64,000 bases of DNA from an uncultured bacterium (GTDB taxonomy: Bacteria > Hydrothermota > UBA3072). The translations under genes and the position numbers were made by a program. Below, in pieces: positions 58,057 to 64,000 of the stretch. The stretch is taken from NCBI GenBank assembly GCA_964606065.1, contig CAZSEX010000001.1, positions 112,429-176,428 of the forward strand, given 5' to 3'. The notes under the pieces were generated by a model, which was not told where the DNA came from, ran no database searches, and was given only the letters and a program-made list of their open reading frames with translations. The first letter of the stretch is position 1. Each line of letters starts with the position of its first letter.

Positions 58057-60480
58057 ATGAAAAGATGTCTCGTGTTATTTATAGTGTTTTCTTTTTTTTG
58101 TACAACAGTTACACTCCCGGCTATTTTTGCTAATAGCACCAGAACGATAAAAACAGGTATTTATGAAAATGAACCCAAGATATTCACAGATAATGAAAAA
58201 CCTTCCGGTTTCTGGGTGGAACTTTTAAACCATATAGCTTTACGAGAAAATTGGAATATCGAGTGGGTACATGGTACCTGGAATGAATGCCTGCAAAGAT
58301 TGGAGGAAGGTAAAATAGATTTGATGCCGGATGTTGCCTATACAAAGGTGAGAGCAAAAAAATATGCTTTTCAGAACGAAACGGTTTTTATCAGCTGGGC
58401 GAGAGTCTATGTGCCGGTAGGTTCGGGGATTCAATCTTTTCTCGATCTTAATGGTAAAAGAATAGCGGTCTTAAAAGGCAGTGTTAATTATATAGGAATA
58501 GATGGGGTAAAGGAATTAACAGAAAAATTCGGGATCGAATGTATTTTCGTAGAAACAGATAATTATAACGACGTGTTTAAACTATTGGAAAAAAAAGAAG
58601 CTGACGCGGGTGTTGTGAACAAAAATTTTGGCAACTTAAACGAAAAGGAATATAAAGTTAAAAGAACTGCCGTAGTTTTCCAGCCGGCGGATTTAAGATT
58701 TGCTTTTTCGAAAAAAACCGCTTTAACGCCTCTTTTGATTACAAGAACAGACCATAACATTAAAGAGATGAAGGCTAATAAGGGTTCGATATATTATAAT
58801 TTATTGGAAAAACATTTTGAGGGACCGATTACTAAGAAACTTGTAATGCCCTCCTGGGTAAAGGAAACTATGTTCACAATCTGCGGTTTATTATTTTTTC
58901 TTTTGATGGTATCGATAGCATCCGGAATTCAGATCAAGAGAAAGACAAAACAGCTCAAAGAAAGCGAGGAGAGATACAAAACTTTGTTTGAAAATTCCCC
59001 GGAAGGTATACTTGTAGCCGAAGTTAAAAGTAAACGATTTTTATATGCCAACCCTGCGATATGTGATATGTTGGGATATTCTAAGGAGGAATTGCAACAA
59101 ATGGGGGCATATGATATCTATCCGAAAGACTCGGTGAAAGATGTGGTTTCCGATTTCGAGGCTCAGGCGCGCGGGGAGAAAACTTTAGTTCCGCTTGTTC
59201 CCTGTTTACGAAAAGATGGTACAACAATATATACCGATATAGCTACAACTAAGATGAATATACAGGACAGGGAGTGCAACGTGGGTTTCTTTACGGACAA
59301 AACAGATTATAAAAAAGCCGAAGAAGAAAAAGAAAAAATAAATTTACAGTTACTACAGGCACAGAAGATGGAATCTGTGGGTAGGTTGGCGGGAACAATC
59401 GCTCATGATTTTAATAACCTCCTGACAGCGATAATCGGCTACGGCAGTCTCCTCCGGGATGAAATTCCGCCCGGTGATTCTAAACGAGAGATGGTAGAAG
59501 AGATTCTTTTTGCTGCAAATCAGGCGGCAAGACTCACAGGTCAGCTTCTTACCTTTAGTCGGAAAAGTTCGACAGAACTCGAAGTGATGGACTTTAATTC
59601 CGTAGTAAAGGAAGTTAAAGGTATGATCGACCGCTTGATCGGAGAAAATATCGTTTTTTCGAGTGATATCGCGAAAGGTTCAATAAAAATCAAGGGAGAT
59701 ACCACTCAAATAAAACAGGTGATTTTAAACTTGATTGTTAACGCGCGGGACGCGATGCCCAGGGGTGGAGAATTATACATAAAGACAGAAAAAATTGCTA
59801 TTGAAGATAGAGAAACCGATAGAATAACTTATTCTTACCCGGGAGAATTTGTTTGTTTAACAGTTTTGGACACGGGCGAGGGAATGAGTAAGGATAAGCT
59901 GGCGAAAGTATTTGACCCATTCTACACAACAAAAGAAAAGGGAACCGGGCTCGGTTTGTCAGTGGCCCACGAAATTATAAAGAAGCATAATGGTTGGATA
60001 AACGTGGAAAGTGAAGTTTCTAAAGGATCCACATTTAAAGTTTACCTTCCTTTGTGTTATGAAGAAAAAGAAACGAAAAGTAACGAAGTTATTTCTGTCG
60101 AAAAATTACGTGGAAAAGGAGAAACGATACTTGTCGTGGAAGACGAAGAGATTACGCGAGCGTTCATTTTGAAAGTTCTAAGGGAAAACGGATATTTCGT
60201 ATTAGAGGCTGAGTGCCTCGAAGAGGCTAATGAGATTTACGAAGAAAATAAAGATAGGATAAAAATGGTTTTTAGCGACGTTGTTTTGTCGGACGGAAGT
60301 GGTTTGGCATTTGTCGAAAAACTTACCTCTAAAAACGAGAAACTTAAAGTTCTTCTAAGCAGTGGTTATATGGGTAATAAGGCTGAGATTTTACGTGTTG
60401 CCGGAAATAAATTTAACTTTTTAGAAAAACCATACGATGTTTCCCGACTATTGAAAAAAATTAAAGAAATTTTGTCTTGA
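58057..60480 (+). CDS. Hybrid sensor histidine kinase: periplasmic solute-binding-like domain, TM, PAS, HisKA, HATPase and a C-terminal receiver
   Basis: SBP_bac_3-like N-terminus (TIKTGIYENEPKIFTD). PAS ERYKTLFENSPEGILV. H-box AGTIAHDFNNLLTAI. G-box GTGLGLSV. Receiver ILVVEDEE...FSDVVLSDGSG. Confidence 0.9.
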   Translation: MKRCLVLFIVFSFFCTTVTLPAIFANSTRTIKTGIYENEPKIFTDNEKPSGFWVELLNHIALRENWNIEWVHGTWNECLQRLEEGKIDLMPDVAYTKVRAKKYAFQNETVFISWARVYVPVGSGIQSFLDLNGKRIAVLKGSVNYIGIDGVKELTEKFGIECIFVETDNYNDVFKLLEKKEADAGVVNKNFGNLNEKEYKVKRTAVVFQPADLRFAFSKKTALTPLLITRTDHNIKEMKANKGSIYYNLLEKHFEGPITKKLVMPSWVKETMFTICGLLFFLLMVSIASGIQIKRKTKQLKESEERYKTLFENSPEGILVAEVKSKRFLYANPAICDMLGYSKEELQQMGAYDIYPKDSVKDVVSDFEAQARGEKTLVPLVPCLRKDGTTIYTDIATTKMNIQDRECNVGFFTDKTDYKKAEEEKEKINLQLLQAQKMESVGRLAGTIAHDFNNLLTAIIGYGSLLRDEIPPGDSKREMVEEILFAANQAARLTGQLLTFSRKSSTELEVMDFNSVVKEVKGMIDRLIGENIVFSSDIAKGSIKIKGDTTQIKQVILNLIVNARDAMPRGGELYIKTEKIAIEDRETDRITYSYPGEFVCLTVLDTGEGMSKDKLAKVFDPFYTTKEKGTGLGLSVAHEIIKKHNGWINVESEVSKGSTFKVYLPLCYEEKETKSNEVISVEKLRGKGETILVVEDEEITRAFILKVLRENGYFVLEAECLEEANEIYEENKDRIKMVFSDVVLSDGSGLAFVEKLTSKNEKLKVLLSSGYMGNKAEILRVAGNKFNFLEKPYDVSRLLKKIKEILS

Positions 60481-61881
60481 TTATTCTTTTCCCGTCCAGC
60501 AGTATGTGCAAAAATTGTTTTCGTCAAGACCGGTTGCTTTTAACATGTCTTCTAATCGCTGGTATTTAAGTGAGCTTACATTCAGGTCCTTTTCCATTTC
60601 CTTTATCATTAGGGAATATTGCCTGGAATCAGGATCGAGGTAAGGTTCGACATTTTCAATGTGTTTTCCGTGTATTTTTTTGATTATTCTTCTGGCGAAT
60701 AATTCGTCTATTTTTCTCGTGGAGAAAAGATATTTGCATGGAAACATAAGAGCAGGACAGGCGGTTCTCACATGTATTTCTTTTGCTCCTGCATTCCAGA
60801 GTTTAACAAGAAGATAGTTTTTTAATTGGGTCCCCCTTACAATCGAATCTTCGGTTATTATGAGCCTCTGGTTTTTAATCAGAGATTCCGCGGTTATCTG
60901 TTTCATTAACGCTACTAAATCTCTTCTCTCCTGAGTCGGGGGAACATAACTTCTTGCCCACCCCGGAGTATATTTAAGCAGAGGTGTTTTTACAGGCATT
61001 CCCGATTCGTACGAATAGCCAAATGAGTAAGCTGTGCCTGAATCCGCTATTCCCGTGACAAGATCGGCGTCTGTGTTATCATTGCGCGCCATTAGTCTTC
61101 CGGAATCCTCTCTGAACTCTTCTACGTTTTTACCTTCGTATTCCGAAGCGGGGAATCCGGTATAAACGTAGAGAAAAGCGCATAGACGCAGGTCTTTGCC
61201 GGCTTCTTTTAACACTTCTGTTTTGTTCTCGGTCAAGAGCATTACTTCTCCGGGACCGAGAAATTTTTTTGTGGTAAACCCCAGGTTTTTATACGAACAG
61301 GTCTCCGAAACCACAATTTTAGCGCCCTTTTTTTCTCCTAAAACAAGAGGAGTTCTTCCGTATTTATCTCTTGCCGCATACAGCCCTTCTTTTCCTAAAA
61401 GAAGCAAGGACATGGAACCGTCGATACGCGACCGCATATATTTTATTCCATCGATCAGATTTTTTCCTTTGTTAATCAAATTTGCCACCAGTTCTATTTG
61501 GTTTGGGCAACCGTTTACCGTTTCGGAAAATATAGTGCCTTCAGAGGTTAATTCGTTTGCGAGTTCGATTTGGTTGTTAATGAAACCTGTGCCGCAGATA
61601 GAGTATTCTCCGAATTTTAGTCTGAGAATAAGAGGTTGGGTATCCCTGTCGCTTATTACTCCGATACCACAGTGACCTTCCATAAGCGCATAGTCGATAT
61701 CTTCTAAAAATCTTGTTTTGAATTGCGCTTTTTCTATCGTGTGTATTTTTTTCTGCAGCTTTTTCCCGTCGAAGATTGCCAGCCCGCCGTATGAGGTTCC
61801 GAGATGAGAATGATAATCGGTCGCGTAAAAAAGGTCTTCCTTGCATTCTTTTTTTGTAACAATACCAACGATTCCGCCCAT
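60481..61881 (-). CDS. purF: Amidophosphoribosyltransferase (PurF) with Gly replacing the N-terminal catalytic Cys
   Basis: PRTase and Fe-S regions align with B. subtilis PurF (ADLVTGIADSGTAYSFGYS, C-terminal NFCTYCWTGKE). The N-terminus is MGGIVGI (GGC codon) where PurF has MCG/ECG. AGAGAGGA SD 8 nt upstream. Confidence 0.8.
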   Translation of the reverse strand: MGGIVGIVTKKECKEDLFYATDYHSHLGTSYGGLAIFDGKKLQKKIHTIEKAQFKTRFLEDIDYALMEGHCGIGVISDRDTQPLILRLKFGEYSICGTGFINNQIELANELTSEGTIFSETVNGCPNQIELVANLINKGKNLIDGIKYMRSRIDGSMSLLLLGKEGLYAARDKYGRTPLVLGEKKGAKIVVSETCSYKNLGFTTKKFLGPGEVMLLTENKTEVLKEAGKDLRLCAFLYVYTGFPASEYEGKNVEEFREDSGRLMARNDNTDADLVTGIADSGTAYSFGYSYESGMPVKTPLLKYTPGWARSYVPPTQERRDLVALMKQITAESLIKNQRLIITEDSIVRGTQLKNYLLVKLWNAGAKEIHVRTACPALMFPCKYLFSTRKIDELFARRIIKKIHGKHIENVEPYLDPDSRQYSLMIKEMEKDLNVSSLKYQRLEDMLKATGLDENNFCTYCWTGKE

Positions 61882-62115
61882 TTTTTTGTTTTCCTCTCTT
61901 TTAGCATTAAAATGAATTTTTATTCAGCTATATTCAATAATATACAAGAGCTTATTATTTTTGCAAGTACAAAAAATTTGCCGCAAAGTTACAAAATTTT
62001 TAATTCGCAATGTTGGAAACAAACTCCAAAGCTACTTTTAATTCGGGGTTTGTCCCGTGGAAAGCAGGTAAAAGATGGCAAAAGCAACAATTCCAACCCA
62101 TGAAAGACTAAAAAA

Positions 62116-62133
62116 CAGCCCAATCATTCGTTA
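62116..62133 (+). repeat. Short partial copy of the 146-bp element (TAAAAAACAGCCCAATC)
   Basis: Matches 51390-51406 gtaaaaaacagcccaacc. Lies in the purF upstream region. Confidence 0.4.
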
Positions 62134-62291
62134 GAGTCATGTCACAGGGATATTAATCGTGCGAAAAACTCGATATGGACCTTTGCGGATATCCGTTCTG
62201 TATTAAAAAGAGAACTGATTACAAATTTCGGCTTTGGAAAGTATTGATGTCTATGTCGAAGATTCGGTGTATTTAACGATAGAAGGGAATA

Positions 62292-63584
62292 CTAACGGCG
62301 AATTCTCTTCAAAGCTTCATTTAAAAGTTTTATAGCGCAGAATTTTCCGCACATCGAACAGGTCTCCTCGAATTCAGGAGTCGTTTTATATCTTATTTCC
62401 TCGGCTTTTTTAGCGTCTATGACCAGTTTAAATTGCGTTTTCCAGTCCATTTTTTTTCTCGCGAGTGAAATTTCTCTATCCCAATCTTTCGCACCAGGAA
62501 TACCCTTTGCTATATCACCCGCATGAGCGGCTATTCGTGCTGCAATTACACCTTTTTCGACATCTTCCAGGTCGGGTATCCCGAGGTGCTCTGAAGGTGT
62601 AACGTAACAGAGAAAATCGGCTCCGTAAGAAGCCGCCACAGCTCCGCCGATTGCCGAAACAATGTGATCGTAGCCGGGAGCAACGTCTGTAACCAAAGGT
62701 CCCAAAACGTAAAAAGGTGCTCCGTGGCAGACTTTTTTTTCGATTTTAACATTCATTTCGATTTCATTTATTGGGACATGACCGGGACCCTCGATTATGA
62801 CTTGAACATCTCTTTCATGAGCTCTCTTAGTTAATTCTCCGAGAATACTCAACTCATGAAATTGGGCCCTATCGGACGAATCTTCAATGGCGCCTGGGCG
62901 GAATCCGTCTCCCAGAGAAAGGGTTATATCATACTTAGAAGCGATGTCCAGAATTCTATCGAAGTTAGTATATAAAGGGTTTTCTCTTTCGTTGTAAAGC
63001 ATCCAGGTTAAGAGGAATGTTCCACCCCTTGAAACAACGTCCATTATTCTGCTTTGATTTCTGAGACGTTCGAAAGTTTCTATAGTAACTCCGCAGTGAA
63101 GAGTCATAAAGTCTACTCCCTCTTTTGCCTGTTCCTCGATAACTTCGAAGATTTTGTTCTCAGTCATGTGAATTATACCACCATTTTCTTTAACGGCTTC
63201 TATTGCTGCTTGATATACGGGAACTGTACCAAGAGGCACAGATGTTTTTTTCAGGATTTCTTTTCTGATTTTCTTAATGTCTCCTCCGGTAGAAAGATCC
63301 ATTATCGTATCGGCGCCAGCTTTCTCGGCTAAAATAGCTTTTTCTACTTCGAGATTTATGTCGGATTTATCAGTGGAAGTTCCAATATTGGCGTTTACTT
63401 TTGTGGTAAGAGGAAACCCGATTCCTGTCGGCTTTACGCCTTTTCGCTTCTCGTTTTTTGTTATTATTATTTTTCTCTCGAGAATATTTTCAACCAGAAT
63501 ATCGAGATTTATATTTTCCGAATCCGCAACTTTACGAACTATGGAAGGAACCCGTCCCTTTTTCAGTTCGGTAATAATTCCCAA
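62292..63584 (-). CDS. thiC: Phosphomethylpyrimidine synthase
   Basis: 430 aa, GAPFYVLGPLVTDVAPGYDHI, C-terminal CSMCGKFCA cluster motif. Confidence 0.9.
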   Translation of the reverse strand: MGIITELKKGRVPSIVRKVADSENINLDILVENILERKIIITKNEKRKGVKPTGIGFPLTTKVNANIGTSTDKSDINLEVEKAILAEKAGADTIMDLSTGGDIKKIRKEILKKTSVPLGTVPVYQAAIEAVKENGGIIHMTENKIFEVIEEQAKEGVDFMTLHCGVTIETFERLRNQSRIMDVVSRGGTFLLTWMLYNERENPLYTNFDRILDIASKYDITLSLGDGFRPGAIEDSSDRAQFHELSILGELTKRAHERDVQVIIEGPGHVPINEIEMNVKIEKKVCHGAPFYVLGPLVTDVAPGYDHIVSAIGGAVAASYGADFLCYVTPSEHLGIPDLEDVEKGVIAARIAAHAGDIAKGIPGAKDWDREISLARKKMDWKTQFKLVIDAKKAEEIRYKTTPEFEETCSMCGKFCAIKLLNEALKRIRR

Positions 63585-64000
63585 CTAATTACCTCCAAAA
63601 ATAAAGTTTTCCGGGTCTAAATTAACATTTTCTTTTTTTACCTCATAATAAAGATATGGATAGGGAGCTCTTCCTGATTGCCCGACGTGGCCTATCACAG
63701 TACCTCTTTTTACGGTTTCTCCTGTTTTGACAGTGTAATTAAACAGATGAGCGTAAGAGCTTACAAAACCGCAGGAATGTGAAATTTCAACAAAAAGACC
63801 TTTACCTTTTTCGTTCCCCACCTGTTTTACTACTCCATCACCGGTTGAAACCACAGGAGCGTTCAATACCGCCAGAATGCTTATTCCCTTATGAGGTTTT
63901 TTCTTACCAGTATAGGGATCTACCTGTTCTCCAAATTTACGCATAATACGTCCTTTTACCGGAATTATAGATGGTATAGAACTCAAAACAGAATGATTTA
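63585..64000 (-). CDS. LytM/M23-domain protein with degenerate active site (probable amidase activator, NlpD/EnvC-like); N-terminus outside the window or ATG 63986
   Basis: HKGISILA (Asp of HxGxD replaced by Ser), GHVGQSGRAPYPYLYYEV (HLH replaced by YLY). Confidence 0.55.
   Translation of the reverse strand, partial: NHSVLSSIPSIIPVKGRIMRKFGEQVDPYTGKKKPHKGISILAVLNAPVVSTGDGVVKQVGNEKGKGLFVEISHSCGFVSSYAHLFNYTVKTGETVKRGTVIGHVGQSGRAPYPYLYYEVKKENVNLDPENFIFGGN

Follow-up and report, generated by a model that had tools for sequence, protein, structure and literature searches.

A mainly bacterial family of PurF paralogues lacks the glutaminase site and may make phosphoribosylamine from ammonia

In this study, we analysed a 64,000-nucleotide (64-kb) stretch of DNA from an uncultured bacterium (Hydrothermota, UBA3072; assembly GCA_964606065.1, contig CAZSEX010000001.1, positions 112,429 to 176,428 of the forward strand), called the window below, and found that a PurF-like open reading frame (ORF) near its end encodes a glutaminase-dead paralogue of PurF, the glutamine phosphoribosyl pyrophosphate (PRPP) amidotransferase. 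The label 'PurF' is thus misleading for this protein. The ORF is complete, lies at 60481-61881 on the minus strand, and encodes 466 amino acids (aa) plus a stop codon. Its translation begins with MGGIVGIVTKKECK (MGGIVG, from ATG GGC GGA ATC GTT GGT) and has Gly where PurF has its catalytic Cys1. Judged from the alignments, the glutaminase half is disabled as a unit, and more than a single substitution sets the protein apart from PurF. On sequence grounds, the C-terminal half appears to be fully competent: PRPP loop, flexible loop, and all four Fe-S cysteines are in place. The protein is most likely an ammonia-dependent phosphoribosylamine (PRA) synthase, a PurF paralogue kept under selection, and we give this reading about an even chance. 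It belongs to a large family, called here the DYHSH family, whose members carry the same database name, 'amidophosphoribosyltransferase', as ordinary PurF.

Loss of the glutaminase residues in the N-terminal half

The PurF-like ORF was recognised from the ORF list, the PurF equivalog model TIGR01134, a PDB sequence match, an AlphaFold model, and Foldseek. An earlier, sequence-only reading of this DNA had stated that, apart from the missing Cys, the protein aligns well with PurF. We found that this is true of the phosphoribosyltransferase (PRTase) half but not of the N-terminal half, in which the glutaminase residues are absent, and that the TIGR01134 score is 189.9 bits against a cut-off of 350. 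The canonical PurF encoded next to a family member in locus L021 scored 521.5 bits on the same model. No NCBIfam model reached its cut-off for the window protein.

The N-terminal domain, of the N-terminal nucleophile (Ntn) type and formerly the glutaminase domain, comprises residues 1-230 (61192-61881, minus strand, as are all features of this gene). Pfam and the PurF alignment show that it is remodelled, and the Pfam GATase_7 match spans residues 77-193. When aligned with B. subtilis PurF, the window protein has G, L, a gap, a gap, T, and Q at the positions of C1, R26, R72, Y73, N102, and D127. In E. coli numbering, Cys1 is replaced by Gly, Arg26 by Leu27, Asn101 by Thr (Thr-Gly for Asn101-Gly102), and Asp127 by Gln, and the GHVRYxTxG loop that carries Arg73 and Tyr74 is deleted, with GIGVISD-x-D in its stead. 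These five changes co-vary over the representatives: the canonical set keeps Cys, HRGQ, RY, N-G, and D, and the family keeps none of them. A protein that lacks Cys1, Arg26, the Arg73/Tyr74 loop, Asn101, and Asp127 is not expected to have glutamine-dependent activity. As the sequence-only reading had concluded, a protein with no N-terminal Cys cannot be a Cys1-type glutamine amidotransferase. Its picture of a lone Cys substitution in an otherwise normal PurF has to be given up, as the protein is a member of a distinct, large paralogue family from which the glutaminase residues have gone together.

The lost residues are replaced by a signature of the family's own. D22-Y23-H24-S25-H26-L27-G28-T29 (61795-61818), defined by alignment and conservation, stands in place of the x-x-L-Q-H-R-G-Q active-site loop. 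In the alignments, G72-I-G-V-I-S77-D78-R-D80 (61642-61668) is found where canonical PurF has GHVRYxTxG, and acidic residues thus take the place of the Arg73/Tyr74 glutamine-binding loop. Over 26 diverse members, D22 and Y23 are invariant, and H26, H47, S77, Q82, P83, and N127 are nearly invariant; G74 is nearly invariant in the family, like S77. Of all 10-residue blocks in the protein, block 21-30 (TDYHSHLGT) is the most conserved, at 0.80, compared with 0.74 for the PRPP loop and 0.72 for block 71-80. Domain by domain, family members have a mean pairwise identity of 0.39 (Ntn), 0.45 (PRTase), and 0.36 (C-terminal part). The value of 0.39 indicates that the Ntn domain is not decaying.

Conservation of the phosphoribosyltransferase half

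The PRTase domain comprises residues 231-400 (60682-61191), which align with approximately residues 233-396 of B. subtilis PurF. R257, G261, S281, G288, R310, R320, K327, D345, S346, R349, G350, H370, and P376 are invariant in the family and common to canonical PurF. The PRPP-binding loop, E344-D-S-I-V-R-G-T-Q352 (60826-60852), corresponds to DDSIVRGTT in canonical PurF and to [DE]DS[IL][VR]RGTQL in the family. The flexible loop of the domain (residues 301-327, LLKYTPGWARSYVPPTQERRDLVALMK; 60901-60981) aligns with the KNRYVGRTFIQPSQ loop of B. subtilis PurF, and its K303, R310, S311, R320, and K327 are invariant in the family. The AlphaFold2 model of the window protein has a mean predicted local distance difference test score (pLDDT) of 92.9 and a predicted template modelling score (pTM) of 0.90, and pLDDT falls to about 70 in the flexible loop, as expected of a mobile loop.

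The sequence-only reading had pointed to C-terminal Fe-S cysteines, and these are indeed present. Alignment predicts Cys234 (61180-61182), Cys382 (60736-60738), and both cysteines of Cys458-x-x-Cys461 (CTYC, 60499-60510) as [4Fe-4S] ligands, equivalent to Cys236, Cys382, Cys437, and Cys440 of B. subtilis PurF, and all four are conserved in the family and in canonical PurF. The best PDB sequence match was B. subtilis PurF (1ao0, 1.4e-44), and the best Foldseek matches of the model, along its full length, were PurF from B. subtilis, Arabidopsis, and E. coli, with template modelling (TM) scores of 0.81-0.86 (at least 0.83 for 1ao0, 1gph, and 6lbp). Sequence identity was 20-26% to the solved PurFs in structural alignments and 28% to an Omnitrophota PurF in tblastn.

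Start codon and residue 2

The ATG of the ORF is located at 61879-61881 and codon 2, GGC (Gly), at 61876-61878; the assignment of this codon to the position of PurF Cys1 is drawn from the sequence, a second assembly, and the relatives. Inspection of these positions confirmed the start MGGIVG without an N-terminal Cys. A Shine-Dalgarno-like AGAGAGG, read from the sequence, lies 11 nt before the ATG (61893-61899), and purine-rich equivalents are found at the same place in three related loci (L001, L003, and L005). We considered and rejected a missed upstream start bearing Cys. The frame is closed by an in-frame TGA 14 codons 5' of the ATG, with no ATG, GTG, or TTG and no Cys codon in between, and therefore no alternative start can give Cys, in agreement with the sequence-only reading.

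A consensus error at codon 2 is very unlikely. Logan contig L009 (run SRR8556479), which may share reads with the assembly, is identical to window positions 61243-63623 at 2381 of 2381 nucleotides, including ATG GGC. The T-to-G error (TGC to GGC) that had been offered as the trivial alternative is rejected, since the relatives have Ser or Gly and never Cys, and L009 reads GGC. An exact-sequence look-up of the window protein returned no record.

Residue 2 was then compared among relatives, a check that the sequence-only reading had proposed with the expectation that Cys in all of them would speak against its claim. Cys was found at this position in none of more than 300 relatives; the nearest clade has Ser, and Gly is the commonest residue family-wide. 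The best 120 database matches (72-100% identity) came from WOR-3, Stahlbacteria, and Cloacimonadota metagenome-assembled genomes (MAGs). Ser follows the initiator in 119 of them (one with a miscalled longer start), and Gly is found in the window sequence only. The Ser codons of the closest relatives are AGT or AGC, and the GGC of the window is one transition from AGC. A wider search covered 1.84 billion cluster representatives and was run without a word index. Among 26 full-length diverse members (representatives at 50% identity), residue 2 is Gly in 11, Ser in 11, Thr in 3, and Ala in 1, and in the 80 species-representative genomes compared, Gly (48) outnumbers Ser (29) and Thr (1), and Cys does not occur. 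Parsimony on a neighbour-joining tree gave about 8-9 independent switches between Ser, Gly, and Thr. The Gly of the window protein is real and ordinary for the DYHSH family, in which, by these counts, Gly is a normal and recurrent state of residue 2. Because Gly is in the majority and the switches are recurrent, residue 2 is not an essential nucleophile in this family.

The invariant Ser of the 119 closest relatives prompted us to consider Ser as a substitute Ntn nucleophile. This was rejected on the same two grounds; a Ser or Thr nucleophile, as in penicillin-acylase-like Ntn hydrolases, does not fit the window protein and the 48 of 80 species that have Gly. A pseudogene or relaxed selection was likewise rejected. 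At 245 columns conserved in at least 95% of the 119 close relatives, the window protein differs at 4 (S2G, I112T, A286S, and P373T), which is inside the range of 0-11 deviations seen in the relatives themselves.

The DYHSH family and neighbouring clades

We define the DYHSH clade by an N-terminus of the form M-[S/G/T/A]-G-x-x-G, deletion of the RYxT loop, the four Fe-S cysteines, and two peptide patterns, [FLY][YF][GA][TV]DY[HN]xH[LM] and [DE]DS[IL][VR]RGTQL, by which it was also retrieved from genomes. The window protein shows all of these features (MGGIVG, FYATDYHSHL, EDSIVRGTQL, GIGVISD, and the full set of four cysteines). Species-representative genomes gave at least 600 matches to the patterns, and members from WOR-3, Stahlbacteria, Omnitrophota, Bacteroides, and other groups share 41-90% identity with the window protein. 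Bacterial carriers include Stahlbacteria, Omnitrophota, Thermodesulfobacteriota/Syntrophaceae, Planctomycetota, Elusimicrobiota, Gemmatimonadota, and Lentisphaerae, as well as Lachnospiraceae, Roseburia, Ruminococcus, and Treponema, and some archaeal MAGs also have a member. One family member, 41% identical to the window protein, is a 470-aa 'amidophosphoribosyltransferase' of Bacteroides (MGGFFGTVSK...). Bacteroides and Lachnospiraceae are major gut bacteria; many other carriers are anaerobes that have not been cultured.

Several sequences outside the clade were also observed. An intermediate clade (P0182, P0203, P0228, P0234, and P0267) keeps Cys1 and HRGQ but, in common with the DYHSH family, has neither the RYxT loop nor the HNGN motif; its members may be evolutionary intermediates or PurFs whose donor specificity has changed. 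Another Cys-less clade (P0262, P0398-P0516, and L093 8001-9356) is of the form MAGLFGLS...FYQQH, with Ala at the Cys position. Its few named matches are mostly Parcubacteria-group bacteria of the candidate phyla radiation (CPR), with one from Aminicenantes and none from Crenarchaeota. To our knowledge, CPR bacteria generally do not have de novo purine synthesis. In a 529-kb contig, the Ala-type gene lies a few genes downstream of a ribosomal-protein/secY/adk cluster, with no pur gene among the called neighbours. A single sequence, P0272, has Ser for Cys1 and keeps His25-Arg26-Gly27-Gln28, the Arg72-Tyr73 loop, and Asp127, with Phe at Thr75 and Asp at Asn102. In its aligned residues it is closer to the substitution that the sequence-only reading had imagined, and it is reminiscent of Mlab_0150, a Ser-bearing protein of Methanocorpusculum (Brown et al. 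2011, PMC3261824).

Gene neighbourhoods of family members

We surveyed 80 loci, whose gene surroundings vary, clustered their 1106 neighbour ORFs, and confirmed the pur identities with NCBIfam. One or more of purB, purL, purQ, purM, purD, purN, purE, and purC lie near the family gene in at least 10 of the 80 loci. A Cys-bearing PurF that passes TIGR01134 is encoded within 10 kb in 6 loci (L021, L024, L029, L061, L065, and L071); in L021 only 33 nt separate it from the family gene directly downstream, and purM alone intervenes in L024 and L029. In two Omnitrophota loci (L016 and L022), the family gene occupies the purF slot of the order purB-purL-(LOG)-(purQ)-X-purM...purD-purE, and no canonical purF was found within the fetched stretch. 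The recurrent neighbours are pur genes, histidine kinases, and ABC components only, and the 1106 ORFs yielded no partner gene, for example a stand-alone glutaminase, that is conserved across loci.

Further neighbours were noted. A LOG-family gene lies between purL and the PurF-like gene in the two Omnitrophota loci (L016 9203-9940 and L022 4734-5426); it matches TIGR00730 in L016 only, and the L022 gene was assigned from a shared motif. In Bacteroides (L010, L011, and L012, 10001-13899), an M20 peptidase gene and gcvT, for the T protein of glycine cleavage, come after the family gene on its own strand. The glycine cleavage system frees ammonia, and the position of gcvT may be coincidental.

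The locus in the window

In the window, thiC (62292-63584, minus strand; 430 aa, TTG start, Pfam ThiC_Rad_SAM) is located directly upstream of the PurF-like gene, across a 410-nt spacer. It begins without a spacer after the stop codon of a 133-aa ORF (63585-63986, minus strand) and may therefore be co-transcribed with it. A functional link between thiC and the PurF-like gene was considered and is improbable, because thiC is beside the family gene in none of the 91 other loci fetched, including those of the closest relatives at 81-90% identity; the thiC-purF operon of Clostridium ragsdalei (PMC6505512) is a possible lead for such a link. Rfam at gathering thresholds found no RNA family in the 64 kb, and no thiamine pyrophosphate (TPP) riboswitch was found at thiC. 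A riboswitch or leader RNA in the spacer was rejected, as a relaxed Rfam search of 61700-62400 gave a chance-level match only. There are no tRNA or tmRNA genes in the window.

In all close loci, some 400 nt of spacer lie before the gene (window 61882-62291, L001 9607-10000, L003 9547-10000, and L005 9590-10000). Alignment of the four spacers showed conservation only in the last ~110 nt, which hold a promoter-like block and the Shine-Dalgarno sequence; the conservation extends to L005, L001, and, more weakly, L003. A consensus scan gave a sigma-70-like promoter candidate, TTGCAA-16 nt-TATATT (61939-61966, minus strand), ~58 nt upstream of the ATG, in a region where the count of such sites is not above chance. 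On the other side, a gene for an 807-aa hybrid sensor kinase (58057-60480, plus strand) converges with the PurF-like gene, stop codon against stop codon (60480/60481). This convergence is conserved in L001, L005, and L007, where the kinase homologues have SBP_bac_3, PAS, HisKA, HATPase, and receiver domains.

Discussion

An ammonia-dependent PRA synthase is the simplest explanation, because the glutamine site is lost, the PRPP site, mobile loop, and Fe-S cysteines are kept under selection, and pur genes are neighbours. We infer the substrate and product, and the reaction would be PRPP + NH3 -> 5-phosphoribosylamine + PPi. Such an enzyme would provide an ammonia-dependent first purine step, beside or instead of glutamine-dependent PurF, in ammonia-rich anaerobic habitats, from which most carriers come. 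The alignment suggests that ammonium would enter through the remodelled glutamine pocket (D22-Y23-H24-x-H26, S77-D78-x-D80, and N127), and, by homology, NH3 would then pass to PRPP through the interdomain channel. The acidic, His-rich pocket that replaces the Arg73/Tyr74 loop would admit and deprotonate ammonium rather than bind an amino-acid carboxylate. There is a precedent in E. coli PurF, which lost its glutamine-dependent activity and kept its NH3-dependent activity when Cys1 was replaced, according to the mention of this work in a later paper (Mei and Zalkin 1989, in PMC3261824).

Several observations weigh against ammonia-dependent PRA synthesis. Block 21-30, the former glutaminase block, would be free to drift if bulk NH3 sufficed, and its rank as the most conserved block therefore points to a specific ligand or chemistry at this site. 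The 6 of 80 loci that have a canonical PurF no more than 10 kb away, adjoining in L021, fit a partner subunit as well. Except for the ORF itself, nothing in the 64-kb window matched the PurF, PurM, PurB, PurL, and PurD references. Full-text literature searches yielded no characterisation of a bacterial Cys-less PurF, only the note on archaeal PurF' and the report on thiC-purF that are discussed below.

The sequence-only reading had named an NH3-dependent protein and a non-catalytic or regulatory one as the options, and both are still to be weighed. The conservation of block 21-30 (0.80, above the 0.74 of the PRPP loop, with block 71-80 at 0.72) would also be explained by a neofunctionalised N-terminal site, made of DYHSH, SD-x-D, N127, and H47, that releases NH3 from another donor without Cys, or senses a ligand and gates the PRTase. 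We regard this as possible, though considerably less probable than ammonia-dependent synthesis. D22 and Y23 are invariant and H26, H47, S77, and N127 nearly so across phyla, the change from Arg73 to the acidic S-D-x-D reverses the charge of the pocket, and the Ntn domain is about as conserved as the remainder (Ntn 0.39, PRTase 0.45, C-terminal part 0.36). However, Gly at residue 2 in most members leaves no N-terminal nucleophile, the 80 loci showed no conserved partner or donor-related neighbour, and an ammonium entry site would equally be His/Asp-rich and acidic. We know of no precedent for Cys-independent donor chemistry in Ntn domains. With similar reserve, we propose that the rebuilt pocket could be a gate for ammonium capture and deprotonation, or a module that liberates NH3 independently of Cys or senses a metabolite; if so, the family would represent a third, undescribed nitrogen supply for the first purine step.

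It is rather unlikely that the protein makes no PRA itself and, as HisZ does for HisG, modulates canonical PurF in a hetero-oligomer. The strict conservation of the PRPP loop, flexible loop, and Fe-S ligands, equal to that in active PurF, argues against it, since pseudoenzymes usually lose catalytic-motif residues. Canonical PurF is absent within 10 kb in 74 of the 80 loci, and the family gene alone fills the purF operon slot in L016 and L022. In favour of a partner subunit are the 6 loci with a canonical PurF within 10 kb, including the 33-nt gap in L021 and the single intervening purM in L024 and L029. Mixed oligomers are conceivable because PurF enzymes are homo-oligomers (1ao0 and 1ecb were deposited with 4 chains), and in Crenarchaeota, too, PurF and PurF' are encoded near each other (PMC3261824). 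A special case of ammonia-dependent PRA synthesis, a supply dedicated to thiamine in which PRA would be carried through aminoimidazole ribotide into hydroxymethylpyrimidine phosphate (HMP-P) synthesis together with ThiC, is improbable. It draws on the thiC gene directly upstream on the same strand and on Clostridium ragsdalei, in which a thiC-purF operon, with a purF of unspecified type, conferred thiamine prototrophy on transfer (PMC6505512). Against this supply stand the 0 of 91 other loci with thiC beside the family gene, the 410 nt between the two genes, which include a conserved promoter-like element, and the missing TPP riboswitch. An artefact or decay, that is, TGC or AGC misread as GGC at codon 2 or an incipient pseudogene, is hardly credible. 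Although the window sequence alone has Gly among the 120 closest sequences, the other 119 having Ser, and GGC is one transition from AGC, the second assembly agrees over 2381 nt with GGC included, Cys occurs in no relative, most of the wider family has Gly, and the ORF is full length with a normal count of deviations at conserved positions.

Canonical PurF of the B. subtilis / Arabidopsis [4Fe-4S] type (1ao0, 1gph, and 6lbp; EC 2.4.2.14) and the window protein share the two-domain Ntn and PRTase fold, the PRPP loop, the flexible loop, and the four Fe-S cysteines, and the relatives' genes, like those of canonical PurF, are found among pur genes. Unlike canonical PurF, the window protein has lost the glutaminase residues, falls below the TIGR01134 cut-off, and carries the invariant DY of the DYHSH motif. 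The closest described counterparts are the crenarchaeal PurF' proteins, Cys-less paralogues with Ala or Val at this position that are encoded near PurF and pur genes, for which the authors proposed, as a hypothesis only, an ammonia-dependent PRPP aminotransferase (Brown et al. 2011, PMC3261824). Compared by description only, the DYHSH family resembles them in kind: both are full-length PurF homologues without the N-terminal Cys, with the same proposed function. However, PurF' has Ala or Val where the DYHSH family has Gly, Ser, or Thr, and the DYHSH family, with members mostly in bacteria, greatly exceeds PurF' in size and carries a signature of its own. The coexistence of PurF' with a Cys-bearing PurF and pur genes is also seen in DYHSH-family loci, but not within the 64-kb window.

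Other enzymes offer parallels for parts of this picture. Carbamoyl-phosphate synthetase I (CPS I) has kept a glutaminase-homologous domain that is dead, with its Cys replaced, and uses free ammonia; it is a class I glutamine amidotransferase of unrelated fold in another pathway, and it resembles the window protein in mechanism only. Beta-lactam synthetase and carbapenam synthetase are class II (Ntn) AsnB homologues without an N-terminal Cys, whose N-terminal domain is not a glutaminase, and structures of this pair (1mbz and 1mc1) were among the fold matches of the window protein model. In both, the synthetase domain has turned to intramolecular amide formation, whereas the PRTase site of the window protein looks unchanged. 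HisZ, a catalytically disabled paralogue of HisRS, is a regulatory subunit of the PRPP-using HisG; it has lost its catalytic residues, whereas the window protein keeps the PRTase catalytic motifs.

Taken together, the single gene is largely explained, and the family to which it belongs is under-described. If its members are ammonia-dependent PRA synthases, reconstructions of nitrogen economy and of purine and thiamine synthesis in the carriers should keep them apart from PurF. Purine synthesis would then gain a pair of glutamine- and ammonia-using enzymes like CPS I and CPS II or the NAD synthetases, and the question raised in 2011 about Cys-less PurF' would become testable in the genetically tractable Bacteroides.

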